Below, piece by piece: positions 183 through 12,469 of a stretch of 12,469 nucleotides of DNA. Numbering within the stretch: position 1 is the stretch's first letter; each line of letters starts with the position of its first letter. The position numbers and the translations under genes are program-made. This DNA comes from an uncultured Actinomycetes bacterium. Its GTDB lineage: Bacteria > Actinomycetota > UBA4738 > HRBIN12. The DNA lies in assembly GCA_963704885.1 (NCBI GenBank), contig CAVPIB010000013.1, positions 1 through 12,469 on the forward strand. Reading direction: 5' to 3'. Below the pieces are notes generated by a model. It made no database searches, had not been told where the DNA came from, and saw nothing but the letters and a program-made list of their open reading frames with translations.

Positions 183-857
183 TCAAAGCGGCGCTTCTGA
201 GCCGGCCGATGGGGCCGGGGTGCTGAGTCCGCCGGGAGGTCGCCGATGGATGCATGAACTCCACGGACGGTTCCCAGCTGGTTCGTAGGACGTCGACGAG
301 AGAGGGGGCGTGACCACGACGACCGGTCGGCCCTTGGGCCGTGGCGATCGCTCGACATAGCCGGCGACGGTCCACCTCAGCATCTCTTCACCGAGCACCA
401 GCCAGGGCGCGCCCTCCCGAAGAAGGAACACCCCGTCGGGCAGATCGTCGAGAGGCGCCTCGTGGTGGGGCTGTCCGCGCGTCATCTGATCCACCCGCTC
501 GGCGTGCAGCTGCGCGTCGATCGCATCGGCGCCGACCTGGCCGGCGTGGAGAGGGCGCCAGATCTCGGCGAACCTCTTGTAGTCCTCATTGCGGCACTGG
601 GCGCAGGGGCGATGCCCGGCAGCGAACGCGGTCGCCTCATCTAAGAAGAACAGCTCGGTGAAGCGACCCGGCTGCATCAAGGGGTGGCGATGCCAGCCTC
701 GGAATCGCAGCCGGCACGTGATCCAGCGCTTGCCGTTGTACCGGCGTCGTATGCGCGCGACCTCGTCGTGCAGACAACCGCGGTTCCCGTAGACGAGTCC
801 GCGCGCCGGATCGGCGATGAACTTGCCGAGCGGCGTGACCCGGTTCTGCAGGGGCAT
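183..857 (-). CDS. Conserved hypothetical protein with an Ada-like Cys motif (probable metal binding); C-terminus apparently frameshifted at about 304-308
   Basis: Motifs QNRVTP, GNRGCLH, WITC, TELFFLDEATAFAAGHRPCAQCR; GHRPCxxC resembles the Ada metal-binding GFRPCKRC. After VVVTPP the frame looks like junk, while adding one base gives TPPSLVDVLRTSWEPSVEFMHPSA. The true 3' end is uncertain. Confidence 0.75.
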   Translation of the reverse strand: MPLQNRVTPLGKFIADPARGLVYGNRGCLHDEVARIRRRYNGKRWITCRLRFRGWHRHPLMQPGRFTELFFLDEATAFAAGHRPCAQCRNEDYKRFAEIWRPLHAGQVGADAIDAQLHAERVDQMTRGQPHHEAPLDDLPDGVFLLREGAPWLVLGEEMLRWTVAGYVERSPRPKGRPVVVVTPPLSSTSYEPAGNRPWSSCIHRRPPGGLSTPAPSAGSEAPL

Positions 858-878
858 CTCGACGTCACCGATACATCA

Positions 879-1403
879 TCAGAGGGTCGGGGACAGCCGG
901 TACCGAAGCTCCACGAGCCCCGTTGAGTAGGACTTGGCGTGGATCAGATCGGCCGCGGCCGGCCCCGTGTCGCTGAAGAGCCGGACGCCGGCGCCCAGCA
1001 AGACCGGCACCACGAACAGGATCAGCTCGTCGATCGCCTGGGCGCTTAGGAACTGGGCCACTAGCCGCGCACCCCCGACCAGGAAGATCTCGCGCTCCGA
1101 CTCCCTGATCGACGCCACCACGTCGGCCACCGGGCCGCTGACGAAGCGCACGGTCGCTCCCTCAGGAGTCGGGAGTTCCCGATGGGTGAAGACCCAGGTC
1201 GACCGCGTCCCGTACGGCCACTCGCCGCGCGCCACGTCCTGTTGGTACGTGGTGGCCCCCATGACCACGGCGTCGACCTCCGACATGAACCGTCCGAAGC
1301 CGTGATCCTCGCCCTCGACGTTGAAGCGCTCGAGCCACGCGACGCCGCCCTTTGCATCGGCGATGAAACCGTCCAGGCTCGCCGCGATGTAGAGCACGAT
1401 CAT
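879..1403 (-). CDS. Dihydrofolate reductase-fold protein (RibD C-terminal domain family)
   Basis: IVLYIAASLDGFIA, VVMGATTY, IFLVGGARL, IDELILFVVPVLLGAGVRLF, GLVELRY. The start could instead be GTG 1424 or GTG 1466. The 21-bp gap to the next minus-strand gene suggests an operon. Confidence 0.88.
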   Translation of the reverse strand: MIVLYIAASLDGFIADAKGGVAWLERFNVEGEDHGFGRFMSEVDAVVMGATTYQQDVARGEWPYGTRSTWVFTHRELPTPEGATVRFVSGPVADVVASIRESEREIFLVGGARLVAQFLSAQAIDELILFVVPVLLGAGVRLFSDTGPAAADLIHAKSYSTGLVELRYRLSPTL

Positions 1404-1472
1404 CCCCAGGGGCCGCCGGCCCACATCAGGATCCCCGCCACGCGAGACCCCAGCAGCCCGTTCCACGTGGCG

Positions 1473-1974: not shown

Positions 1975-2014
1975 CGCGAACCCGTAGCCGGACCTCGATA
2001 CGGAAGCGTCGCAG

Positions 2015-2086
2015 AGCCGGAGCGGGGATTCGAACCCCGGACCTACCACTTACGAGGCGGTTGCTCTACCACTGAGCTACTCCGGC
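2015..2086 (-). tRNA. tRNA-Thr(CGT), CCA not encoded
   Basis: GCCGGAG TA GCTC AGTGGTA GAGC A ACCGC CTCGTAA GTGGT AGGTC CGGGG TTCGAAT CCCCG CTCCGGC T forms a full cloverleaf with anticodon CGT and a TTCGAAT T-loop. Confidence 0.97.
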
Positions 2087-2103: not shown

Positions 2104-2110
2104 CCGAACG

Positions 2111-2177
2111 GGTGCTGGCACCACGGGAGGAGCGGCGGTCTGCACGGTCGTCGAGTTGAGCCTCCATCAGCGATGAT
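2111..2177 (+). promoter_or_regulatory. Candidate response-regulator boxes plus weak -10 (GATGAT) for the USP-kinase gene
   Basis: GGTGCTGGCACCAC (2111-2124) and GCGGCGGTCTGCAC (2132-2145) match GGGGGTAGCACCAC (9092-9105) and GCGGTGGTCTCCAC (9112-9125). GATGAT (2172-2177) is 7 nt before ATG 2185. Confidence 0.55.
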
Positions 2178-2184
2178 GCCCTCC

Positions 2185-4296
2185 ATGAGCTCCGGCGTAA
2201 GCGTCAACACCCAGGGGCAGGTCGGCCGTGTGATGGTGGGAACCGACCGATCGGAGACCGCCGAGCGCGCCGTCCGGTGGGCCGCCTCGTTCGCGGAGCT
2301 GTACGCCGCGGACCTCCACATCGTTCAGGTGATCCTGCCGAGCCACCCGTCTGACACCGAGTTCGGAGCCGCCGAGGCAACACGCGCTCGCGGTGCTGCC
2401 GACGAACTTCAGACCTACGCCACCCAGATCGCCGGCGAACGCGGCAAGGCCCACGTGGTGATCGACGACGACCCCGCGATGGCCATCGTGCACGCCACCG
2501 AGGAGCACTCGATCGACGTCCTGGTGGTGGGCAACGCGGGGATGGCGGGCCGCAAGGAGTTCTTGCTGGGGAACGTCCCCAACCGGATCAGCCACAATGC
2601 GCGCTGCACGGTGATCATCGTGAACACGGCGGCTGACGGACAGGCGGCCGCGACCGGCGTTTCGCGCGCACCTGCGTCGATCCGCTCAAGCGCCGTCGAG
2701 GTCGAGACCGAGCCGCACCTGGTCGCGCGCGGCACCAAGATCGCGAGCGTCTTCGCCAAGCACGGACTGAAGGAGCTGTTCGGCCGGCCCGACGAGGAGG
2801 GATCGGTCGGCAAGGTCCGTCAGGCTAAGCGCCTGCGCTCTGCCCTGGAGGAGCTGGGGCCGACGTTCGCCAAGATCGGGCAGATCCTGTCCACGCGGCC
2901 AGACCTGCTGCCCCCGGAGTTCATCCAGGAGCTGGCCACCCTGCAGGACGACGTGCCACCGCTCCCCGAGGAACAGGTGGTCCGGGTCATGGAGCAGGAG
3001 CTGGGAGTGCCGTGGGAGGACGTTTTCGATCACATCGAACCCCAGCCGTTGGCCGCGGGAACCATCGCGCAGGTGCACCGGGCGGTGCTGGCCAACGCCG
3101 AGCGAGTCGTGATCAAGGTCCAGCGCCCCGACGCCAAGGAGCAGATCGAGCAGGACCTGGCACTGCTCGAGGTCTTCGCGGAGAAGGTGAGCCACCGCCC
3201 CGGGCTCAAGCAGGTGATCGACATGGAGGCGGTGTTCATCCATCTGTCCGAATCGCTGCACCGAGAGCTGGACTTCCGCCAGGAGGCCGGGAACATGCGT
3301 CGCCTGGCGGCTGTGATCGAGCCGTTCAGCCGGCTGCGGGTTCCCGAGGTGCACGGTGATTACTCCACGTCGCGCTTGTTGGTGATGCGCGACGTCGCCG
3401 GCGGTCCCCTCTCGTCGGCCCCTGAGGGTGGCCCGCGCAGAGAGGCGGCGCGGCAGCTGCTGGAGTCGTTCTACAAGCAGATCCTGGTCGACGGCTTCTT
3501 CCACGCGGATCCGCATCCGGGGAACCTCATGTGGCAGCCCGAGGAAGAGCTCCTCTACTTCTTGGACCTGGGCATGGTCGGCGAGGTGGGCCCCGAGATG
3601 CGCGAGCAGATGATGCTGCTGCTCATGGCCTTCTGGCAGGAGGACGTGGGTTTCCTGACCGACGTATCTCTGATGCTCGCGGGCGCGATCGATCGCAGTG
3701 ATCTGGACGTCGACGCGTTCAGCGAGGAGATCGGCGAGCTGATGGCCAAGAACCGCACGGCCTCGCTCAAGGACATCCAGCTGGGACCCGTGCTGCAAGA
3801 GATGACCGAGATCTCGCTCCGACACGGGGTGCCGCTGCCTGCATCGCTCACGTTGACCGGCAAGGCGCTCGCCCAGATGCAGCTGGCCGCGGCCGAGCTG
3901 GATCCCGAGCTGGATCCGTTCGACGTGGCAGGGAGCTTCCTGATGCGCAGCGTGATGAGGGACATGGGCACCAAGTTCGACCTGAAGGCGATCTTCTACC
4001 AGACCCAGAAGTTCAAGGTGCGCGCGATGCGGGTGGTCGAGGCCGTGGAGCGCCTTATCGGCGCCAGACCGGGCCAGAAACTCGAGGTCAACTTCCGTGC
4101 TTCCACGCTTGAGACGACGATCCGGCGCGCGGGAAGACGCCTCGCCCTGGGCCTGACTGCAGGTGCCGCGATCCTGGCGACGTCGCTCTCGGCTTTGTCC
4201 GCGCGTGTCGCCGGCTGGGTACCCGCGGCGTTCGGGGTCGTGGCAGGCCTGCTCACGCTGGCGCTGGTCGTCGACCTGGTCCGGCGGCGCGACTAG
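2185..4296 (+). CDS. Fusion of an N-terminal universal stress protein domain, an ABC1/UbiB/AarF atypical kinase and C-terminal TM helices
   Basis: USP part: VMVGTDRS...AVRWA, DVLVVGNAGMAGRKEFLLGNVPNRISHNARCTVIIV. Kinase part: LGPTFAKIGQ (KxGQ), LSTRPDLLP, PLAAGTIAQVH, IKVQRP, ELDF, GFFHADPHPGN, DLGMVG. Two hydrophobic segments precede RRRD. The start could be 2173, 2176 or 2185. Confidence 0.92.
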   Translation: MSSGVSVNTQGQVGRVMVGTDRSETAERAVRWAASFAELYAADLHIVQVILPSHPSDTEFGAAEATRARGAADELQTYATQIAGERGKAHVVIDDDPAMAIVHATEEHSIDVLVVGNAGMAGRKEFLLGNVPNRISHNARCTVIIVNTAADGQAAATGVSRAPASIRSSAVEVETEPHLVARGTKIASVFAKHGLKELFGRPDEEGSVGKVRQAKRLRSALEELGPTFAKIGQILSTRPDLLPPEFIQELATLQDDVPPLPEEQVVRVMEQELGVPWEDVFDHIEPQPLAAGTIAQVHRAVLANAERVVIKVQRPDAKEQIEQDLALLEVFAEKVSHRPGLKQVIDMEAVFIHLSESLHRELDFRQEAGNMRRLAAVIEPFSRLRVPEVHGDYSTSRLLVMRDVAGGPLSSAPEGGPRREAARQLLESFYKQILVDGFFHADPHPGNLMWQPEEELLYFLDLGMVGEVGPEMREQMMLLLMAFWQEDVGFLTDVSLMLAGAIDRSDLDVDAFSEEIGELMAKNRTASLKDIQLGPVLQEMTEISLRHGVPLPASLTLTGKALAQMQLAAAELDPELDPFDVAGSFLMRSVMRDMGTKFDLKAIFYQTQKFKVRAMRVVEAVERLIGARPGQKLEVNFRASTLETTIRRAGRRLALGLTAGAAILATSLSALSARVAGWVPAAFGVVAGLLTLALVVDLVRRRD

Positions 4297-4313
4297 TCCA
4301 GCTCAGACTAGTC
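4291..4313. terminator. Hairpin between convergent genes (GACTAGTC-N7-GACTAGTC), possible bidirectional terminator
   Basis: A self-complementary 8-mer occurs twice and can form an 8-bp stem with a 7-nt loop on either strand; no U-tract. Confidence 0.35.
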
Positions 4314-4326
4314 AGCCGGCCGAAGA

Positions 4327-4527
4327 TCACGGCTCGTCGAGCTTCGCCTCCGTCCCTTTCGTGGTGATCGTCGTGGGTTCTGGCGTCGTGGCGCCGCCCT
4401 TCTTCCTCACCGAGCGCATGACGACCTTCTCGAGCACGAAGGCGATCACCGCCATGATCACGCCAACGGCCCAGCGTTCGAACCGGCGGATCCCTTTCGG
4501 CTTCTTTGTCGTCACGCGCCCGGTCAC
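4327..4527 (-). CDS. Small single-pass membrane protein (66 aa)
   Basis: The GTG start overlaps the kinase TGA (GTGA) and has GAGG upstream. Basic N-terminus, hydrophobic WAVGVIMAVIAFVL, Thr-rich tail, coding-like codon usage. Confidence 0.7.
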   Translation of the reverse strand: MTGRVTTKKPKGIRRFERWAVGVIMAVIAFVLEKVVMRSVRKKGGATTPEPTTITTKGTEAKLDEP

Positions 4528-6629
4528 GCGGGCACCTCGGCATCCGACAGACGGAGTCGCCCCTCGATCGTGGTGCCGCGTCCCGGCGACGATGTGACCA
4601 CGAGCTCGCCGTCCTGGGCGCCCAGTCGGTCGGCCATCCCCTGCAACCCGGAACCGCCGACGCTGGATACCGGATCGAAACCGCGACCATCGTCCGCAAC
4701 GATGAACGTGAGCACGCGATCGCGTTCGGCGAGCGACACGGTCACCGACGACGCGTCCGCGTACTTGGCCACGTTCTGAAGCGCCTCCAGGCAGGAGAAG
4801 TACACGGCGGCCTCGACCTCCTGCGGGTAGCGACCTATCCCGTCGGCCTCGATCTGCACCGGCAACCCACTCTTGCGGCCCTGCGCCGCGAGTGCGGCGG
4901 CGAGACCCTTGTCGGCCAGGAGCGGTGGGTAGATGCCTCTCGCTAGGTCCCGCAGGTCCTCCAATGCGGAGTTCGTCTCACCCTGGAGCTGAGCGAGCAA
5001 CTCGTGAGCTTGTGTCGCATCGCGTTCGACCAGGCCATCCGCCAGCCGCAGCTTCACCGACAGGGCCACCAACTGTTGCTGCGCGCCGTCATGGATGTTG
5101 CGCTCGAGCTTGCGACGCTCCTCGTCCTGGGCCGAGACCAGCCGGCGCTGCGCCGCCTTCAGGTCTTCGAGCCGGGCCTTGAGCTCTTCGGTCAAGCGAA
5201 CGTTCCTCAGCACCAGCCCGGCCTGGGACGCCAGGCCGGCGATCAGCTTCTCATCCGCCGCGGAGACCGGATCGCTCGCCGGCTTGCGGACGGCGAGCGC
5301 ACCCAGCAGCTCACCGCCCTGTTCGACCGGATAGACGCGGTCGGCGCCCTCGATCGATGGCATCGCGCCGTTCGCCAGAGGTATCGCCGATGCGCCGCCC
5401 GCGTCGGGTGGCCAGGCCGCCACATCGCGCAGCTCCCGGTCGACCGCGAGCCAGACGTCGGCCCGATCGGCGCCGACCCCTTCGCCCAGGATGCGGGCCA
5501 TACGAGGCAGGACGTCTTCGTCGGCGTATGCCTCCCCCACTCGCTCGGAGAACTCGGAGAGGACCTCGTACGGTGTCGCGCGCTTGCCGTACACCAAACG
5601 GTTCGCGAAGCGACCGGCGCGGCTGCGTATCGGGAAGATCAGTAACCCGATCGCCAGGCCGATCAGCACTTGCCAGGCATCTACGCCCGACCCTGAGCCG
5701 CGTCCGAGCACGATGGTCGGCAGAGCGATCGCCACCATCAGGTAGAAGGCCGTCACCGCCACGACCACCGTAGCGAAGATCACGGTCTTCTTGATCACGA
5801 CGTCAAGGTCGTACAGGTGGAACCGAAGGACAGCGATGCCGATGGACAGCGGGAACATCAGGAACGCAACACCGCCGATCACCGAACTCAACAGCGTGTC
5901 CTGGCTGGAGAAGCTGGTGCTGGTGATCGCCAGGAGCGCAGCCACGAGACCGAACACGACCCACTTGATCTGTTGGCGTTCGAGGCCTGACGACCTCCGG
6001 AAACGGAGGACCAACGAGACGATCGAGGCCCCGAAGATGGCGGGGAACAGGATGCCGATCACCGGATCCAGGTTGGGGAAACCTCCGATAGCGTCGACGT
6101 AGAAGGGGTTCTTTACCCCGACGTCGGCCGAACCCGTCAGGACCTCTTGGCCGAAGGCGAGATTCATCGCCAAGATCACGATGAACGCGGCGATGAACCA
6201 CAGCAACGGGCGCCATCTCCTCGATGGAAGGCGGCCGTCCGGGAACAGCAGCGGCAGGAGGAACACCATCAGCAGGATCCCGAACATCCACCCGGCGCTG
6301 TTCAGGAAGCCGCACACTACGACCAACCATCCCTCGGTGCCGTGCGTCACCGCGTAGGTGAACCACTCTCCGCTGAGGAAGGACAGAGCGGTGAAGAACG
6401 ACGACCACATGAGCAGAAGCCCGATGGTGTTCCGCCGGTCGCGGCTCACGATGAGCGCGCCCACAGCGCCGAACATCGAGAAAGCGATCACGTACGGGAT
6501 CTGCTCGGCAAGGGACTCGCCGTTGAGCTCGACGAGGACCATGCTGGCCGTCGCCACCACAAGGAAACCGGCGAAAGCCACCCAGGGCCACCGCGCGGGG
6601 CGCAACGACAACTCAGGAGATGACGACAA
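4524..6629 (-). CDS. Membrane sensor histidine kinase HK1 (multi-TM, GAF-like, HisKA_3, HATPase_c)
   Basis: H-box ERRKLERNIHDGAQQQL, RGIYPPLL, N-box EALQNVAKYA, G1 DDGRGFD, G2 GSGLQGM, PGRGT; about 10 hydrophobic segments. TTG start with GGAGG 6 nt upstream, overlapping the cyclase gene by 17 bp. Confidence 0.93.
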   Translation of the reverse strand: MSSSPELSLRPARWPWVAFAGFLVVATASMVLVELNGESLAEQIPYVIAFSMFGAVGALIVSRDRRNTIGLLLMWSSFFTALSFLSGEWFTYAVTHGTEGWLVVVCGFLNSAGWMFGILLMVFLLPLLFPDGRLPSRRWRPLLWFIAAFIVILAMNLAFGQEVLTGSADVGVKNPFYVDAIGGFPNLDPVIGILFPAIFGASIVSLVLRFRRSSGLERQQIKWVVFGLVAALLAITSTSFSSQDTLLSSVIGGVAFLMFPLSIGIAVLRFHLYDLDVVIKKTVIFATVVVAVTAFYLMVAIALPTIVLGRGSGSGVDAWQVLIGLAIGLLIFPIRSRAGRFANRLVYGKRATPYEVLSEFSERVGEAYADEDVLPRMARILGEGVGADRADVWLAVDRELRDVAAWPPDAGGASAIPLANGAMPSIEGADRVYPVEQGGELLGALAVRKPASDPVSAADEKLIAGLASQAGLVLRNVRLTEELKARLEDLKAAQRRLVSAQDEERRKLERNIHDGAQQQLVALSVKLRLADGLVERDATQAHELLAQLQGETNSALEDLRDLARGIYPPLLADKGLAAALAAQGRKSGLPVQIEADGIGRYPQEVEAAVYFSCLEALQNVAKYADASSVTVSLAERDRVLTFIVADDGRGFDPVSSVGGSGLQGMADRLGAQDGELVVTSSPGRGTTIEGRLRLSDAEVPA

Positions 6630-7890
6630 GGAAGACCTCCACGGGTTCCTCCCGGCCCTTCACGTACCGCGACCCGACCGGCTCGCATTCGACCTTCGGC
6701 GCCGCCGCGACCGTCGACGCGGCCGCGACGATCTCGCCGCCCTTTGCCTCGGACTGCAACCGCTGGGCGATGTTCACGGCGTCGCCCACCACCGTGTACT
6801 CGAGGCGGCCGCCCCCTCCGACCGTCCCGGCGATCACCAGACCGGTGTTCACGCCGATCCCGACCTCGAGCTCCGGAACGTCTGCGTCCCAGCCCTGCGC
6901 GTTCAGCTCCGCTTGGCGCTCTTGCATGGCGATCGCGCAGCACAGCGCCCGCTCCGCGTGATCGGATGTGGGCTCAGGAGCTCCGAAGACGACCATCACA
7001 GCATCCCCCTGGAACTTGTCGATCATGCCGCCCATCGACAGGACCACCTCCGCCATCGCGGTGAGGTGTTTGCCGACGACCGTCGCGACGACTCGCGCGG
7101 GGAGGCGTTCGGCGAGCGTCGAGAACCCTCGGATGTCCGAGAACAGGACGCTCACCTCGACCTCCTGCGGCTCGATCGCCATCTCGGGATGCGCCGCGAG
7201 CCGATCTGCCAGCTGTTGTGGGACGAACGACGCAAGCGTCTTGCGGGAGGTCGTCTGTTCCACTACCGCGGCGTGCAGGCGCTTGAACTCGTCGACGAGT
7301 CCCGAGCCTGCACCGTCGCCGGCCATCCGCTTGAACAGCGCGGTGACCTGTGAATCGACGGCCTCCTGGGTGGTCTCTAGCGTCTCTGCGATCTCGGCGT
7401 ACCCGAGGCCCTTGGCCATCATGTCGAGCAACTCGCGCTCACGCTCGACCGTGTCGCCGCGGCCCGACAGGCGCTCGGCGATCGTCGGATCCACGGTGCT
7501 GCCTCCCGCGTGAACCTCACGGATCGCACGCGCCAGCTCGTCGCCCTGCGAGATGCGGTCCTTCAAGAGGTACGCCAGGCCGCTGTGACCGCCCCCGAGC
7601 AAAGCGAGGGCGTACGCCTCGTCGTCGTGGGCGGATAGAACGACCACGCCGGTATCGGGGTGCGAGGAGCGGATCGCGTGCGCGCAATCGATCCCCTCAA
7701 GCTGGAAAGACGGCGGCATCTTGATATCGGTGACGACGACGTCGGGTGTGTGCTCCGCTGCGGTCTCCAGCAGCGAGGGCGCGTCTACCGCGACCCCGAC
7801 CACCTCGATGTCGTCGTATGAGTCCAGCAGCGCTCGGACGCCCTCGCGTACTAGGACATTGTCCTCCCCCAGCACGACCCGGATGCTCAT
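6613..7890 (-). CDS. Receiver domain, degenerate LuxR-type HTH and class III adenylate cyclase fusion
   Basis: REC: GEDN, TD55IKMP, VLS, YLLKD. HTH-like: ERERELLDMMAKGLGYAEIAETL. Cyclase: VLFSDIRGFS, IDKFQGDAVM, GIGVNTG, EYTVVGDAVNIAQRLQ, VKGREEPV. GGAGG RBS upstream. Confidence 0.92.
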   Translation of the reverse strand: MSIRVVLGEDNVLVREGVRALLDSYDDIEVVGVAVDAPSLLETAAEHTPDVVVTDIKMPPSFQLEGIDCAHAIRSSHPDTGVVVLSAHDDEAYALALLGGGHSGLAYLLKDRISQGDELARAIREVHAGGSTVDPTIAERLSGRGDTVERERELLDMMAKGLGYAEIAETLETTQEAVDSQVTALFKRMAGDGAGSGLVDEFKRLHAAVVEQTTSRKTLASFVPQQLADRLAAHPEMAIEPQEVEVSVLFSDIRGFSTLAERLPARVVATVVGKHLTAMAEVVLSMGGMIDKFQGDAVMVVFGAPEPTSDHAERALCCAIAMQERQAELNAQGWDADVPELEVGIGVNTGLVIAGTVGGGGRLEYTVVGDAVNIAQRLQSEAKGGEIVAAASTVAAAPKVECEPVGSRYVKGREEPVEVFLVVIS

Positions 7891-7922
7891 CCTGCTTCCT
7901 CCGACCGCTCGATGCCCGCGTG

Positions 7923-7928
7923 TACCAT
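7923..7928 (+). promoter_or_regulatory. Candidate -10 (TACCAT) of a leaderless response-regulator transcript
   Basis: TANNNT 6 nt before ATG 7935 with no Shine-Dalgarno sequence, the usual leaderless geometry in actinobacteria. Confidence 0.5.
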
Positions 7929-7934
7929 CCGCGC

Positions 7935-8603
7935 ATGATCCGCGTTGTGTTCGCCGAGGATAACTACCTGGTCAGGGAGGGGACGGCGGCGCTGCTGGCG
8001 ACGTCTGACCAGGTCGAGCTGGTGGGGACAGCGACCACGCGCGACGAGCTGCTGTCGGCCGTGGAGGAACACTCCCCCGACGCCGTCCTGACGGACATCC
8101 GCATGCCCCCGACGGGAACGAACGAGGGCATCGAAGCCGCGAAGACGATCCGCGCCGCGCATCCCACGATCGGCGTGGTCGTGCTTTCGCAGTTCGTCGA
8201 GGAGGACTACGCGTTCGACCTGCTGAAGGACGGCGCCGCCGGGCTCGGCTACCTCCTGAAGGAGCGGGTGGCCGACGTCGACGAGCTCGTACGGGCGCTG
8301 GGAGAGGTCGCGCGGGGCGGAAGCGTGCTCGATCCCAAGGTCGTCGAGGCGCTGGTCTCGGCGAAGGAGCGGATGGCGCACTCGCCGCTCGCGCAACTGA
8401 CGGACCGCGAACGCGAGGTGCTCTCGCACATGGCGCAAGGAGAGAACAATGCGGCCATCGCCAAGTCGCTCTTCCTCACCGAACGCGCCGTCGAGAAGCA
8501 CATCAACTCCCTCTTCCACAAGCTGGGTCTCACGGAGGAGCCCGACGTGCACCGCCGGGTGATGGCGGTGCTCGCGTTCCTCCGCGAGACCGGCGACGCC
8601 TGA
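7935..8603 (+). CDS. NarL/FixJ-family DNA-binding response regulator (REC plus LuxR HTH)
   Basis: AEDNYLVREG, TD54IRMPP, VLS, GYLLKER; HTH LTDREREVLSHMAQGENNAAIAKSLFLTERAVEKHINSLFHKLG. The real start is ATG 7935, not 7746, which would overlap the divergent gene. Confidence 0.95.
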   Translation: MIRVVFAEDNYLVREGTAALLATSDQVELVGTATTRDELLSAVEEHSPDAVLTDIRMPPTGTNEGIEAAKTIRAAHPTIGVVVLSQFVEEDYAFDLLKDGAAGLGYLLKERVADVDELVRALGEVARGGSVLDPKVVEALVSAKERMAHSPLAQLTDREREVLSHMAQGENNAAIAKSLFLTERAVEKHINSLFHKLGLTEEPDVHRRVMAVLAFLRETGDA

Positions 8604-8605
8604 CA

Positions 8606-9013
8606 TCACTGCGCTCGGCGCGTATCCACGATGAACACCGAGCAAGGCGCGTGCCGCAGGAGCATGTTCGGGACGCTGTCGCGAACGTGCCACCGTCCGC
8701 CCTGCGCCCCTCGGTTGCCCACCACGATGGTGTCGACAAGCTCCTCGGCCGCCACCTCGCAGAGGCGCTCGGCGGGCTCTCCCTGCTCCACCCGGGTGCG
8801 GGCCGCGACGTCGGGGAACCGTGTCGGGATCCGAGCCAGGTACGCGGAGGGGTCCGCCGCCCGATCGGGGTCGATGACCGCACGCAGATCGGACTCGGGC
8901 TGGACGTACAGAACCAATAGCTCGGCCCCACGGTCGCGTGCTAGCCGGGCGGCGCTCTCTACGGCCAGATCGGCCGCTGCGGATGTATCCGTTCCTACCA
9001 AGACGGTGCTCAT
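8606..9013 (-). CDS. Universal stress protein (single domain, 135 aa)
   Basis: MSTVLVGTDTS, GEPAERL, DTIVVGNRG, SVPNMLLRHAPCSVFIV; AAGGAGG RBS before ATG 9013. Confidence 0.92.
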   Translation of the reverse strand: MSTVLVGTDTSAAADLAVESAARLARDRGAELLVLYVQPESDLRAVIDPDRAADPSAYLARIPTRFPDVAARTRVEQGEPAERLCEVAAEELVDTIVVGNRGAQGGRWHVRDSVPNMLLRHAPCSVFIVDTRRAQ

Positions 9014-9039
9014 CTGGGGCCTCCTTACTCGTCGCCCCG

Positions 9040-9180
9040 AAAGTACGCTCGGGGGAGGGCGGGGACAGCCCGGCCGCCACCACCGTTCCCAGGGGGTAGC
9101 ACCACCCACCGGCGGTGGTCTCCACTCGCGAGCGAAGGCGGGTACCGCCCTTCCGGCTGCGGCTGCGGAGAGGCGACAAT
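9040..9180. promoter_or_regulatory. Divergent promoter region with four phased candidate operator boxes
   Basis: Minus-strand -10 TACTTT (9040-9045); 11-mers at 9073-9083, 9095-9105, 9115-9125 and 9138-9148 spaced 22, 20 and 23 bp; plus-strand -10-like GACAAT (9175-9180) 7 nt before ATG 9188. Confidence 0.55.
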
Positions 9181-9187
9181 CTCAGCT

Positions 9188-9328
9188 ATGACAACGACCA
9201 CAGAGGGACGGCGGCGGCCGACTTGGGCGCTCGGCGTCACCGCCTCGGTCATCGGAAGGCTCATCGATCGGAGCGAGCTGCGTCTCGGGATCCGTCATCT
9301 TCCTGTGGAAATGGAGCGCGCATCGTGA
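9188..9328 (+). CDS. Small leader ORF (46 aa) coupled to HK2
   Basis: MTTTTEGRRRPTWALGVTASVIGRLIDRSELRLGIRHLPVEMERAS; its TGA overlaps the HK2 GTG (GTGA at 9325-9328). Confidence 0.45.
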   Translation: MTTTTEGRRRPTWALGVTASVIGRLIDRSELRLGIRHLPVEMERAS

Positions 9329-11542
9329 GTCCTACGACCGCGAAACACCTTTCGCGCGCGATCATCGCGGTCGCACTAGCGATGATCGCGATCTCGCTCA
9401 TCGTCGGCGCCACGTCATCCAGGCACCAAGAGCCGGGGCGGATCTTCATAGTCGGTGATGCGTCCGTCGGTGATGGCCCGCTGGTCCACGAAGCGCTCAT
9501 CGATCGTCAGACGGAGGGCGAGACGTTCGCTATCGCGGCGGTCAACCCGCAGATCGTGCTCGGGTTGATCGTCGGTCTGCTCTGGATGATCACCGGGTCG
9601 CTGATCGTGTCCCGCCAGCCGCGCAACACCGCGGGCTGGATCTTCCTCGCGATCGGTGTTGCCCTCCCTCTCAGCGGTATGGCCTCCACGCTCGCCGTGA
9701 CGGGTGTGAAGACCGTTCCCGCCTCGGTGCCGCTGGTCGGTCTCTGGGCGGTCGTCAACGAATACAGCTTCCTTCCGGTCGTCCTGCTCCCCCTGCTCTT
9801 CCTGCTCTTCCCCGATGGGCGGCCGCCCACGCCTCGCTGGCGTTGGGCCGAGCGTGCGTTGTTCGCGGGGCTCGCGATCGCGATCGTGGGGTTCACGCTG
9901 TCCCCGGGGCCACTGAACAACCTCGTCGACTCCGGCATCCTGTACGAGAACCCGATCGGGATCCCCGCGTTCGCCGGCGTGTCCGACGCGATGACGACGA
10001 TCGGCGTCGTGCTGTGCCTCATCGCCGGCTTCTCCACGGTCTTCGCGGTCCGAGGTCGCTTCAAGCGCTCGACGGGTGAGGAACGCCAACAACTCCGCTG
10101 GCTCGTGTTCGTCGCGACGACCGCCGCGATCTTGTTCACGTTCCTCTTCGGGATCACCCTCCCCGGCGATGCCATCGGCTGGGCATTCGGAAGCTTCCCG
10201 ATCTTCGCGATCCTCTTGCTCCTCCTGGCCGTCGTGATCGCGTTCGGTGTCCCCGGCGCCTATCTGGTCGCGATCTTCCGATACGGGCTGTGGGATCTGG
10301 ACGTCGTGGTGCGTAAGACGGTCGTGTACGTGGTGCTGGCCATCCTGCTGCTCGTTACGGGGTTCGCGTTCGTGTGGTTCGTGACCGGACTGTTCGCCTC
10401 GGCTGCGGCGCCGAACGGGAAGGTCGATCTGCTGTCCGGTGTGGTGATCGGTCTCTTGTTCTGGCCGCTCCGGAAGATCGCGGTCAAGATCGCAGATCGG
10501 TTCGTCTACGGAGGGCGAGCGACCCCGTACGAAGTGTTGACCTCGTTCGCGGGGCGCGTCGGCGAGACCTATTCGACGGACGACATCCTGCCTCGGATGG
10601 TGCAGGTGCTGGCGAGGGGGGTCGGCGCAGAAGGCGCCACGGTGTGGCTCCGGGTCGGGAACCAGCTGCGCCCCACGATGACATGGCCTGACGACGTAGC
10701 GAGACCGGCGTCGGTGAGCCTGTTAGGCGACACGTTTCCCGCGATCCCCGATCAGCACGCGGCCGAGGTTCGCGATCAGGGCGAGCTCTTGGGTGCGCTC
10801 TCAGTGGTCATGCCGGCCTCGGATCCCATGACGCCGGGGAGGGAACGACTCGTCCGCGACCTCGCGTCGCAGGCCGGCCTGGTGCTTCGCAACGTGCGGT
10901 TGATCGAGGAGCTCCGCGCGTCGAGACAACGGCTGGTTGCCGCTCAGGACGAGGAGCGGCGCAAGCTCGAACGCAACATCCATGATGGAGCGCAGCAACA
11001 ACTCGTGGCGCTGGCCGTGAAGCTCCGACTGGCGGACACGTTGATGGAACGCGACCCGACGAAGGCGCATGCGCTGATGACGCAGCTCCAAGGAGAGACG
11101 CACGGGGCCCTCGAAGATCTCCGCGACCTGGCGCGTGGGATCTATCCGCCGCTGCTCGCGGACAAGGGATTGCCCACCGCGCTCGAGGCCCAGGCGAGGA
11201 AGGCCGCGGTGCCCACCACGGTGAGCGCGGATGGGATCGGCGCGATACGCGCAAGACGTCGAGGCCGCGGTCTACTTCTCCTGCCTGGAGGCGATGAGCA
11301 ACGTGGCGAAGTACGCGGAGGCAACCGAAGCCTCCGTTGGCCTCACGCAGGCAGACGGTCACCTCACCTTCGTCGTGGCGGACGACGGGCGGGGGTTCGA
11401 TCCGCATGCCACCGGCTACGGAACGGGGCTGCAGGGGATCGCGGACCGGCTCGATGCGATCGGTGGAACGCTGTCGGTCGTCAGTCGAATTGGGGCTGGA
11501 ACGACGATCACCGGCTCCATTCCGGCGGTAGCGGAACGATGA
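9325..11542 (+). CDS. Membrane sensor histidine kinase HK2 (paralog of HK1) with a +1 frameshift at about 11241-11242 (sequencing error or pseudogene)
   Basis: Hand translation from GTG 9325 is stop-free: RNTAGW, LFPDGRPPTPRWR, ERQQLRW, LWDLDVVVRKT, RATPYEVL, ERRKLERNIHDGAQQQL (His at 10981), RGIYPPLL, ADGIG. The HATPase (RYAQDVEAAVYFSCLEAMSNVAKYA, DDGRGFD, GTGLQG) continues one base later to TGA 11542. Absent from the ORF track. Confidence 0.9.
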
Positions 11543-12469
11543 GGGCGAGCCGCTGGACCCGTTGGCTGGCGCTCGGGATCTTGCTCGCGACGCTGGTGCT
11601 GATGGCGCTCGCGTTCGTCCTGTGGATCGGCAACCCGGTGAACGAAGGGGTCGACCTGCCGTTCGCCCTCGGCCTGGGGGTCGGCATGCTGGCGTTCGGC
11701 ACGATCGGTGCGATCCTCGCGACCCAGGCACCGAGCAACCCGATCGGATGGCTGTATGAGCTCGCCGCGTTCGGGGTCGTCCTCGCCGTGGCGACGGAGC
11801 AGTACGCGATCCGAGGGCTCGAGGACCTGACCTCGCTGCCGGCCGTTCCCTACGCCTATTGGCTGAACGCGGCGGTCACTCCCATAGCGATCTCGCTCAT
11901 CCCCATCGCGCTCGTGCTCTTCCCCGACGGCCACCTCCTCTCTCGACGCTGGCGTCCCATCCTCTGGGCGCTGCTGGCCGCCGCCGTGGTGGGGTCGTTC
12001 GCGTCGGCGTTCCTCGACGAGGTGTTTCCGGTCGGCGGCGTCGCGTACGTGAAGAACCCGTTCAGCATCGGATCGGGAGGTACCGACCGTCTGTGGCCCT
12101 TCCTGGCCAGCCTGCTCCTCGTGGGGATCATGGGATCGCTCTCGTCGGTGGTGATCCGATACCGCAGGTCCGAGGAAGAACAACGCCAGCAGCTCCGGTG
12201 GCTGGCAGCCGCCGTGCTTGTCATCGGCGTCGCGGGTGTCGTCGCGTTCGCGATCGGCTTCCTGCCGCTCCCCACCGATGTGAGCGCGATCCTGAGCGCC
12301 ATAGCGGGGTATGCCATGTTGGTCGCCGCAACGATCGGGCTCCCCGCCGCGACAGCCGTGGCGATCCTGCGGTACCACCTCTACGACCTCGACCTGGTCG
12401 TGAAGAAGACGGTCGTGTTCACGATCGTGGCGGTGTTCCTCACCGGCCTCTACCTCGCGGCTCTGGCGC
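11539..12469 (+). CDS. Third paralogous multi-TM sensor, probably histidine kinase HK3; partial at the right edge
   Basis: ATG 11539 overlaps the HK2 TGA (ATGA). MRASRWTRWLALG..., NPIGW, LFPDGHLLSRRWRP, VKNPF, QRQQLRW, RYHLYDLDLVVKKTV match HK1 and HK2. The kinase core lies outside the window. Confidence 0.85.
   Translation, partial: MRASRWTRWLALGILLATLVLMALAFVLWIGNPVNEGVDLPFALGLGVGMLAFGTIGAILATQAPSNPIGWLYELAAFGVVLAVATEQYAIRGLEDLTSLPAVPYAYWLNAAVTPIAISLIPIALVLFPDGHLLSRRWRPILWALLAAAVVGSFASAFLDEVFPVGGVAYVKNPFSIGSGGTDRLWPFLASLLLVGIMGSLSSVVIRYRRSEEEQRQQLRWLAAAVLVIGVAGVVAFAIGFLPLPTDVSAILSAIAGYAMLVAATIGLPAATAVAILRYHLYDLDLVVKKTVVFTIVAVFLTGLYLAALA

Follow-up and report, generated by a model that had tools for sequence, protein, structure and literature searches.

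A candidate DosR/OsdR-like multi-sensor two-component cluster with a receiver-linked adenylate cyclase in uncultured actinobacteria

The locus studied here raises the question of whether a row of adjacent signalling genes serves one pathway, and of what would read the cAMP that one of them is predicted to make. It lies on a 12,469-nucleotide stretch of DNA from an uncultured actinobacterium, analysed as a whole and called the window below. An initial annotation had proposed a chain from several kinases to cAMP, from cAMP to USP domains and from these to an atypical membrane kinase. We lean, with modest confidence, towards a different reading: a DosR/OsdR-like multi-sensor stress two-component system, whose phospho-signal would branch into a transcriptional arm and a cAMP arm.

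Gene content and paralogy

The window contains a USP-ABC1/UbiB fusion, three HisKA_3 kinases (HK1, HK2 and HK3), a NarL-type regulator, a response regulator with a cyclase output (REC-cyclase) and a free USP. These are the seven genes of the initial annotation, all found again by ORF calls and Pfam; the paralogies it had drawn, among the sensor kinases and between the two receivers, are borne out by pairwise identities. No protein of the cluster, the NarL regulator included, reached an NCBIfam equivalog cut-off. Rfam returned nothing over the window except the tRNA, a scan of the window for sigma-70 promoters and terminators gave no signal above shuffles, and no RNA runs containing the locus are listed. 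A small ORF (9188-9328) is kept in both the C12 and the C13 copies of the locus; a consistent counterpart is absent at other loci.

Table 1 Features of the window
Feature	Position	Strand	Evidence and remarks
tRNA-Thr gene	2014..2086	-	Occupies most of the USP-ABC1 upstream region
Box GGGTGCTGGCACCA, putative NarL-regulator site	2110..2123	.	1 mismatch; ~63 nt upstream of USP-ABC1 start
USP-ABC1/UbiB-family atypical kinase fusion, 707 aa	2173..4296	+	Pfam Usp E=8.5e-24, ABC1 E=1.2e-63
HK1: ~9 hydrophobic segments, GAF-like region, HisKA_3, HATPase_c	4524..6629	-	Pfam
REC-cyclase, response regulator with adenylate cyclase output	6613..7890	-	Pfam: REC, weak GerE, Guanylate_cyc
NarL/FixJ-type DNA-binding response regulator	7935..8603	+	Pfam: Response_reg 1.8e-15, GerE 3.9e-14
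Free single-domain USP, 135 aa	8606..9013	-	Pfam Usp 8.3e-25
Degenerate box GGGTGGTGCTACCC (minus strand)	9094..9107	.	3 mismatches; 94 nt upstream of free USP start
HK2, HK1 paralogue, split over two frames	9326..11542	+	One extra base near 11239-11243
HK3, third paralogue, N-terminal sensor part only, gene cut by contig end	11539..12469	+	Paralogy to HK1/HK2

In the USP-ABC1 fusion, the UbiB/ABC1 motifs are legible from the sequence and alignments: KxGQ, the A-rich loop, the catalytic Lys, HxDxHPGN and DLG. Two hydrophobic helices (residues 657-703) close the C-terminus. In the PDB it comes closest to mycobacterial ABC1 proteins (5yjz and 7cy2), and against the NCBIfam UbiB equivalog it scores 326 bits, under the cut-off of 487.55. 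Among the best 150 50%-cluster representatives, only three full-length proteins (P0122, P0124 and P0129) cover both domains. The architecture is not new, since a 2005 paper (PMC1262709) already mentions a USP-ABC1 fusion of Nitrosomonas europaea.

The kinases carry 9-10 hydrophobic segments and a single weak GAF-like region. HK1 and HK2 differ most in the sensor (32% identity); their GAF-like parts are 53% identical and their DHp-CA parts 68%. The HK1 sensor matched no Pfam or NCBIfam family; in Protein Atlas its nearest clusters are all unnamed actinomycetotal proteins. HisKA_7TM, at 0.84 in the same resource, is a lead at most.

The end of the cyclase gene runs into HK1 on the same strand, so the two genes are probably co-transcribed. 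The HATPase_c domain of HK2 lies in the other frame (11231-11542); the copy of this gene on contig C12 is intact, the extra base is missing from near-identical contigs of two public runs, and the frameshift seen in the window probably arose during assembly. The start of HK3 overlaps the stop of HK2 (ATGA), and the full HK3 gene continues in contig C1.

The NarL gene is divergent from the cyclase gene, with 44 nt separating the start codons. In Pfam, its product combines REC with a GerE HTH, as expected of the NarL/FixJ family, and the HisKA_3 kinases of the cluster are its putative partners. Its best PDB match is DevR (3c3w, 3e-23), with VraR near-equal at 2.2e-22. The motif LVREG..ALL in helix alpha1 is common to the NarL regulator and the REC-cyclase; it is absent from a stand-alone receiver (stand-alone REC) encoded outside the window.

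The REC-cyclase consists of a receiver with D55, a three-helix HTH remnant (147-190), a long helix or CTE (196-233) and a class III cyclase (242-422). Its AF2 model (mean pLDDT 82.6) places three HTH helices before the long helix. Residues E9/D10, D55, S86 and K110 of the receiver, a complete phospho-acceptor set, are invariant in 18 orthologues. Class III cyclases use two metal-binding Asp, a substrate Lys with Asp/Thr, and transition-state Asn and Arg. Alignment to 3r5g, 6fht and 2w01 identifies all six canonical residues here (D252, K292, D296, T366, N373 and R377); they are invariant in the 18 aligned orthologues (68-92% identity) except for K292, which gives way to Q in L027 and to E in L028. 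By these residues and D55, the adenylate cyclase that the initial annotation had seen on a NarL-type receiver is catalytically intact in sequence, and its receiver keeps the phospho-acceptor. We examined the 60 best of 98 PDB matches, and among these no chain spans both halves.

From its sequence and model, the HTH appears to be a vestigial, non-DNA-binding remnant. GerE reaches 21.1 bits where the cut-off is 23.5, over positions 5-45 of 57; where the recognition helix of NarL has R, K, H and N, the REC-cyclase has E, S, Q and T; and the protein lacks a complete four-helix LuxR/GerE domain with a basic recognition helix. Despite the loss of these basic residues, the remnant is near-invariant in orthologues, and the protein is 47% identical to the NarL regulator over 196 aa, HTH remnant included. 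Together with the constant divergent pairing of the two genes, this would suit a REC-cyclase whose chief effect is on the transcriptional arm, by competition for phosphate or in mixed dimers with NarL through REC or the HTH remnant, its cAMP being secondary. We nonetheless find such a role very unlikely, for the conservation of the catalytic residues argues for selection on catalysis.

Synteny and a conserved upstream box

We compared 80 loci from distinct MAG species, counting each feature only where the flank sufficed. NarL is adjacent and divergent to the cyclase gene in 74 of 74 loci, the free USP belongs to the cluster in 70 of 72, and the stand-alone REC in 35 of 55. USP-ABC1 lies within 10 kb in all 59 loci with at least 9 kb of flank. 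The initial annotation had staked its proposal on the two fusions being syntenic elsewhere; we ran this comparison, and in the MAG loci their synteny is upheld. In one genome (G001), the trio of USP, NarL and REC-cyclase is duplicated in tandem as a unit. The carriers are uncultured soil and freshwater actinobacteria. More distant relatives of the cyclase regulator, found outside the class at 43-50% identity, still have kinase and NarL genes beside them, with a USP at 0 of 14 loci.

Kinase number and order are strongly variable among loci. No kinase lies between the cyclase gene and USP-ABC1 in 18 of the 68 loci where USP-ABC1 was found; operon-based kinase pairing is therefore not universal.

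A 14-bp palindrome with the consensus GGGTGCTGGCACCC (GGGTGC-TG-GCACCC) is kept upstream of both USP genes, and the stand-alone receiver gene provides a third promoter with the box. Within the window alone it is not above chance, with 5 matches at up to 3 mismatches versus 2.37 expected: we take it as real because it is conserved across relatives, and not from window statistics. It forms a conserved block in alignments of both USP-gene upstream regions, and is present with at most 2 mismatches in 54 of 70 free-USP regions and 32 of 64 USP-ABC1 regions examined. Over 1.39 Mb of class loci, a PWM yielded 142 matches scoring at least 13, versus 2-7 in five shuffles; 52 of them belong to the upstream region of the free USP and 41 to that of USP-ABC1. 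The box also occurs at 31 of 38 stand-alone REC genes, whose sites had been left out of the PWM training.

In the genome of the window (G000), the USP-ABC1 site scores highest genome-wide (24.2), followed by that of the stand-alone REC (21.7). Genome-wide matches of at least 14 number 10, versus 6-12 in shuffles, and sites outside the cluster are not enriched, so we put weight only on the few top ones. Another PWM site, C1:455193, falls within an ORF. Altogether, the shared upstream boxes seen in the initial annotation prove conserved at both USP genes across relatives, which is consistent with a transcriptional arm driving the USP genes.

Two other identities of the box were considered. The CRP consensus has the spacing GTG-N8-CAC; a CRP-type site was rejected, the spacing of the box being GTG-N4-CAC. 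A sigma-54 reading, suggested by TGGCAC, was rejected as well, TTGC being absent at the right distance; to our knowledge, sigma-54 is absent from this phylum.

Could the genes be neighbours without a common pathway? USP-ABC1 would then have a housekeeping membrane or quinone-related role, the box would be a promoter element or the site of an unrelated regulator, and the cyclase receiver would be served by kinases elsewhere. The variable kinase content of the loci fits this, as do the class-wide counts, in which USP-ABC1 is commoner than the cyclase regulator: 249 of 294 genomes (95 of 109 of high quality) versus 219 of 294 (87 of 109). It fits, too, that USP-ABC1 and its box (17.9, 2 mismatches) survive in G007, a 98%-complete congener from which the entire kinase/cyclase block is missing. 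Yet one box at three cluster promoters, in G000 hardly present outside the cluster, the constant proximity of USP-ABC1 and the overlap of the cyclase gene with HK1 on one strand speak against it, and we judge it rather unlikely. As G007 retains the box and a REC-cyclase query found no NarL orthologue there, the box could belong to a different regulator.

USP domains and cAMP

ATP-binding USPs of the MJ0577 type have the motif G-2x-G-9x-G(S/T), which is matched by neither USP here. The free USP, whose ATG is preceded by an AAGGAGG ribosome-binding site as read from the sequence, has G-2x-G-9x-D-S, kept across 53 aligned sequences; the fused domain has G-2x-G-9x-G-N, near-invariant at 90% or more in every column of 62 aligned sequences. 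A mycobacterial USP binds cAMP in its ATP pocket, with contact glycines G10 and G113/114 (PMC11107214). Both glycines have equivalents in both USPs of the window (VGTD and VVGN).

These matches, and the tight synteny of the cyclase with both USP genes, favour the chain of the initial annotation, a closed pathway in which cAMP from the REC-cyclase would be bound by the free USP and the fused USP domain and would gate the UbiB-type kinase. The Asp that the free USP conserves where the motif has its third glycine might, in addition, disfavour a triphosphate. However, the two glycines are general to nucleotide-binding USPs and not specific to cAMP; in PDB comparisons, both USPs resemble Rv1636/MSMEG_3811 only weakly, and the ATP-binding Rv2623 at least as well, and nothing in the sequences marks these USPs as cAMP binders. 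The link from cAMP through USPs to the ABC1 kinase is further disfavoured by G007, where USP-ABC1 occurs without the cyclase block, and by the USP-free neighbourhoods of the REC-cyclase relatives outside the class. Moreover, conventional cAMP receivers are abundant in G000, since 24 cNMP_binding matches exceed the cut-off there, next to 24 cyclase-domain matches, both counts including strain-variant contigs. On balance, we regard the chain as quite unlikely.

We give slightly less credence still to a self-contained second-messenger circuit, in which both USP domains would be monophosphate (cAMP) sensors and phosphorylation of the cyclase receiver would gate the membrane kinase at two levels, the post-translational through cAMP-USP and the transcriptional through the NarL box. 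If the USPs did sense cAMP, this would reveal a general cAMP-receiver role for USP domains outside mycobacteria, and a first defined upstream signal for a UbiB-family kinase.

Proposed signalling and relation to known systems

The DosR/OsdR-like system with a branching phospho-signal, which we favour, would work as follows. In response to a presumed stress, the paralogous membrane kinases, with divergent multi-pass sensors and a conserved DHp-CA, would phosphorylate the two sister receivers. Phosphorylated NarL regulator would bind the 14-bp palindrome and induce the genes for the free USP, for the USP-ABC1/UbiB kinase with its membrane anchor and for the stand-alone receiver, which may act as a feedback phosphate sink. 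Phosphorylation of the REC-cyclase would raise cAMP synthesis, the HTH remnant possibly serving as a spacer before the cyclase-transducer helix, and this cAMP would be read by the large network of conventional cAMP receptors in the organism.

Such a cluster would provide a sequence-defined, testable example of two sister regulators that split one phospho-signal between gene regulation and cAMP synthesis. Its cis-element and likely targets are already mapped over hundreds of uncultured actinobacteria from soil and freshwater. It would carry the DosR/OsdR theme, in which USP genes accompany a kinase and a NarL regulator, into a new lineage whose membrane sensors form a new family. It would also bring a kinase of the UbiB family, about whose control little is understood, under an identifiable, putative stress regulon.

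The initial annotation did not recognise the locus as a described system. This holds for the cluster as a whole, for which a literature search found no description, but not for its core, which is a kinase-regulator-USP arrangement of the DevR/OsdR type.

With CyaC-type receiver-regulated cyclases, the REC-cyclase shares a class III cyclase predicted to be under the control of a phosphotransfer receiver. The precedent is the cyanobacterial CyaC cyclase, reportedly controlled via receiver phosphotransfer in the 1999 work of Kasahara and Ohmori. The CyaC structures 1wc0/1wc1 are among the alignment matches of the REC-cyclase, and its Lys/Thr substrate pair is one that we take to be as in these structures. 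In contrast to CyaC, the protein is a plain REC-cyclase and not a hybrid kinase, has the vestige of a LuxR/GerE HTH between its two domains, and is both neighbour and paralogue of a DNA-binding regulator.

USP-ABC1 resembles the UbiB/ABC1/COQ8 kinases, including mycobacterial Rv3197 (MABP-1), in its ABC1 motifs and C-terminal membrane anchor; its N-terminal USP domain and its score under the UbiB equivalog cut-off set it apart. The free USP, for its part, is a single domain with two cAMP-contact glycines, like Rv1636/MSMEG_3811, but the similarity is weak (E 1e-5 to 3e-5), Asp replaces the third motif glycine, and the cAMP-binding clade is reported only from three genera, Mycobacterium, Corynebacterium and Nocardia (PMC11107214).

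The cluster shares most with DevS/DosT-DevR (dormancy) of Mycobacterium tuberculosis and with the OsdK-OsdR system that Streptomyces coelicolor has: the HisKA_3 kinases include a GAF-type region, the regulator is of the NarL family, USP genes lie grouped nearby and, as it would seem here, more than one kinase feeds one regulator. DevS and DosT are soluble tandem-GAF haem sensor kinases, whereas the kinases of the window have a membrane sensor of 9-10 segments that falls into no described family. In PMC5069765, the OsdR consensus is given as AGGGCCGATCGGCCCT, and OsdR/DevR boxes are GGG-N8-CCC palindromes upstream of USP genes. A GGG-N8-CCC palindrome ~80-100 nt upstream of USP genes is a common trait, while the inner bases of the box here, TGC-TG-GCA, differ. 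The regulator itself matches DevR at a level that VraR equals. Finally, this cluster departs from the DevR/OsdR systems by its second receiver, a paralogue with a cyclase for output, and its apparent targets include a USP-ABC1 fusion and a stand-alone receiver.

Gene content and assembly of the locus

The window was mapped by GC-phase analysis, ORF listing and Pfam scans, and every part named in the initial annotation was found in it: paralogous HisKA_3 membrane kinases (HK1-HK3), a NarL-type regulator, its paralogue carrying an adenylate cyclase (REC-cyclase), a free universal stress protein (USP) and a USP fused to an ABC1/UbiB atypical kinase (USP-ABC1). The 224-aa protein at one end is conserved beside USP-ABC1 at two other loci, G007 and L041, with 69-73% identity. 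A 46-codon ORF at 9188-9328 (+) opens with an ATG of its own and closes with a TGA that shares bases with the GTG start codon of HK2. The copy on contig C12 retains this ORF; no consistent counterpart was seen among the other loci.

Features of the window
Feature	Position	Strand	Remark
224-aa protein of no family	183-857	-	no Pfam or NCBIfam match
RibD_C-type reductase	879-1466	-	Pfam
tRNA-Thr(CGT)	2014-2086	-	
USP-ABC1	2173-4296	+	Pfam
HK1	4524-6629	-	Pfam
REC-HTH remnant-cyclase	6613-7890	-	Pfam
NarL-type regulator	7935-8603	+	Pfam
Free USP	8606-9013	-	Pfam
HK2	9326-11542	+	
HK3	11539->12469	+	cut by contig end

The window is a complete 12.5-kb contig (C13) of a 3.0-Mb MAG in 20 contigs (G000). 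It aligns end to end with two further contigs, C1 (21577-34040, 95.6%) and C12 (1562-13894, about 90% nucleotide identity), which makes it a strain-variant copy of one locus rather than part of a paralogous triplication. As three such copies are binned in one MAG, copy counts for this genome are inflated. In the window, one extra base near 11239-11243 places the HATPase_c domain of HK2 in a different frame. HK2 is intact in the C12 copy, and two public runs have near-identical 151-nt contigs without the base (X1 with 1 other letter, X3 with 3 other letters); it is therefore probably an assembly error. In the C1 copy (C1:23800-35400, locus L127) the reading frames of USP-ABC1, HK2 and HK3 are broken, that of HK3 in at least three places. 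We read these breaks as assembly indels, not pseudogenes; they point to a noisy assembly.

A proposed branched two-component core and its neighbours

The NarL regulator and REC-cyclase are 47% identical over 196 residues (about 50% by another comparison), from the receiver into the HTH. In the receiver of REC-cyclase, E9/D10, D55, S86 and K110 are invariant in 18 orthologues. Its HTH is a remnant: GerE scores under the Pfam cut-off and covers only positions 5-45 of 57, and where the recognition helix of the NarL regulator has R, K, H and N, the remnant carries E, S, Q and T. Despite the loss of these residues, it shows almost no variation. In an AF2 model (mean pLDDT 82.6, pTM 0.52, 18-row alignment) the receiver comes first, then three short helices (147-190), one long (196-220) and one short (225-233) helix, and finally the cyclase fold. 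The cyclase domain aligns most closely in the PDB with P. aeruginosa CyaB and Synechocystis Cya2. It contains D252, K292, D296, T366, N373 and R377, which are the metal, substrate and transition-state positions, and has the Lys/Thr pair typical of adenylate cyclases.

The kinase sensors have about 9-10 hydrophobic segments and the conserved motifs FPDG..RRWRP, ERQQ.KW and LYDLD. They match no Pfam or NCBIfam model, and their Atlas neighbours are unnamed actinomycetotal clusters. Identity between HK1 and HK2 is 32% in the sensor, 53% in the GAF-like part and 68% in the DHp-CA transmitter.

Synteny was examined in 20 loci of relatives and 80 loci from a species-representative collection, the latter all from uncultured Actinomycetota or Actinomycetes MAGs. 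The order kinases - USP - NarL | REC-cyclase - kinases(0-3) - USP-ABC1 is kept. Counting only loci with sufficient flank, the NarL gene is adjacent and divergent to that of REC-cyclase in 74/74 and a free USP is present in 70/72; USP-ABC1 occurs in all 59 loci with at least 9 kb of flank. The number of kinases between the cyclase gene and USP-ABC1 varies over the 68 loci in which USP-ABC1 was found: 18 have none, 35 have one, 12 have two and 3 have three. The two fusions are thus clearly syntenic elsewhere, contrary to the refuting condition set in the initial annotation. In the genome set searched, the class of the window is a single order with eight families (294 genomes, 109 of high quality); full-length REC-cyclase occurs in 219 of these genomes (87/109 high-quality) and USP-ABC1 in 249 (95/109), each search including 19 unpublished genomes.

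Beyond the class, 28/369 sampled genomes of the phylum (two unpublished) have a full-length REC-HTH-cyclase relative, at 43-50% identity. Of 14 such loci, 9 have kinases with the same sensor type close by and 6 have a NarL relative with 55-71% identity; neither USP nor USP-ABC1 was found near the cyclase in any of the 14, several of which are short. G007, a congener of the window's genome that is 98% complete, retains USP-ABC1 (85%) beside the same flanking genes and lacks the whole block of kinases, both regulators, free USP and stand-alone REC. On contig C13 of another relative, G001 (L018 / L038), the trio free USP - NarL - REC-cyclase is duplicated in tandem. These three cases limit the linkage within the cluster; the old core is thus a kinase with two sister regulators. 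In the class the free USP accompanies this core, and USP-ABC1 is a neighbour able to stand alone.

G007 (C2:460500-480499, L128) is a natural deletion variant in which topA, holB, an M36 peptidase gene and USP-ABC1 form one contiguous stretch; upstream of USP-ABC1 it still has a box with two mismatches. At L127:14583-17843, the kinase array and the stand-alone receiver are separated by a gene for an M36 fungalysin-type metallopeptidase that has FTP and CarboxypepD_reg domains; in some same-genus loci this gene is the one divergent from the free USP.

A shared upstream box

The aligned upstream regions (70 of the free USP, 64 of USP-ABC1) share a single conserved block, GGGTGCTGGCACCC, which forms a 6-2-6 palindrome. 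Its usual position is 92-98 nt before the ATG of the free USP, with at most two mismatches in 54/70 regions, and 55-85 nt before that of USP-ABC1, with at most two mismatches in 32/64. In the window, the boxes are at 2110-2123 (USP-ABC1, one mismatch) and 9094-9107 (free USP, three mismatches); the start of the system as initially annotated, 2111, coincides with the former. The tRNA-Thr(CGT) gene directly upstream of it, conserved there in most relatives, limits the USP-ABC1 promoter region to only about 85 nt. Between box and start of the free USP (9030-9075 and aligned regions) there is a second conserved block, with a consensus of about GTGGTGNCGGCCGGGTCGTC, and a -10-like TACGGT, which is TACTTT in the window.

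A PWM built from 85 USP-upstream sites gave 142 hits scoring at least 13 across class loci totalling 1.39 Mb, versus 2-7 in five dinucleotide shuffles; as these same loci served to train the PWM, much of the excess is by construction. An independent result is a third site class, GTGGTGCTGGCA[CT]CACTG, upstream of a stand-alone receiver gene (31/38 genes). This gene (75-90% conserved) sits at the distal end of the kinase array and probably belongs to the system. In the MAG of the window it encodes 134 aa outside the window (C1:38114-38521; L127:18115-18519), with its box at C1:38536. Genome-wide, box hits of at least 14 are not enriched in this MAG (10 versus 6-12 in shuffles), and the highest scores belong to the cluster's own USP-ABC1 (24.2) and stand-alone REC (21.7), so the predicted regulon looks small and local.

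The cAMP step and comparison with known systems

The free USP has a conserved motif G-2x-G-9x-D-S and the fused USP an invariant G-2x-G-9x-G-N; the canonical ATP motif of USPs differs from both. Similarity to Rv1636 is weak and not above that to ATP-binding Rv2623 (PDB). Both USPs keep the two cAMP-contact glycines of MSMEG_3811, which are general nucleotide-pocket residues (PMC11107214). The MAG has 24 cNMP_binding matches above cut-off and 24 cyclase-domain matches, strain-variant contigs included; REC-cyclase is thus one of many cyclases, and conventional cAMP receivers are plentiful. With about 24 domains of each kind, cNMP-binding and class III cyclase, in 3 Mb, the genome has an unusually dense cAMP network. 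Given the USP motifs and similarities, these counts, G007 and the USP-less relatives (0/14), sensing of cAMP by the USP domains is possible but unsupported, and we consider it quite improbable. Of the scheme first proposed, a two-component core that branches and transcriptional control of the USP genes are supported, and the reading of cAMP by USP domains is unsupported.

For receiver-controlled class III cyclases, cyanobacterial CyaC is reportedly a precedent. Among the 150 best 50%-cluster representatives retrieved with USP-ABC1, just three are full-length proteins with both domains, the remainder being plain UbiB-like proteins of roughly 550 aa; a USP-ABC1 fusion had been reported from Nitrosomonas by 2005 (PMC1262709). 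Our literature searches found no published description of a cluster with this combination. The best solved relative of the NarL regulator is DevR, with an almost equal score for VraR (PDB), so we claim likeness to DevR, not orthology. The box has the same GGG-N8-CCC palindrome layout as the OsdR consensus AGGGCCGATCGGCCCT, which is said to conform to the DevR box; the same source places predicted OsdR sites at -80 to -100 before USP genes and describes USP genes clustering around devRS and osdRK (PMC5069765, with its Table 1). The cluster is best filed as a variant of the DosR/OsdR kinase-regulator-USP theme, distinguished by a cAMP-making sister regulator, by membrane sensors of a new family and by having a UbiB-type kinase as one of its apparent targets.
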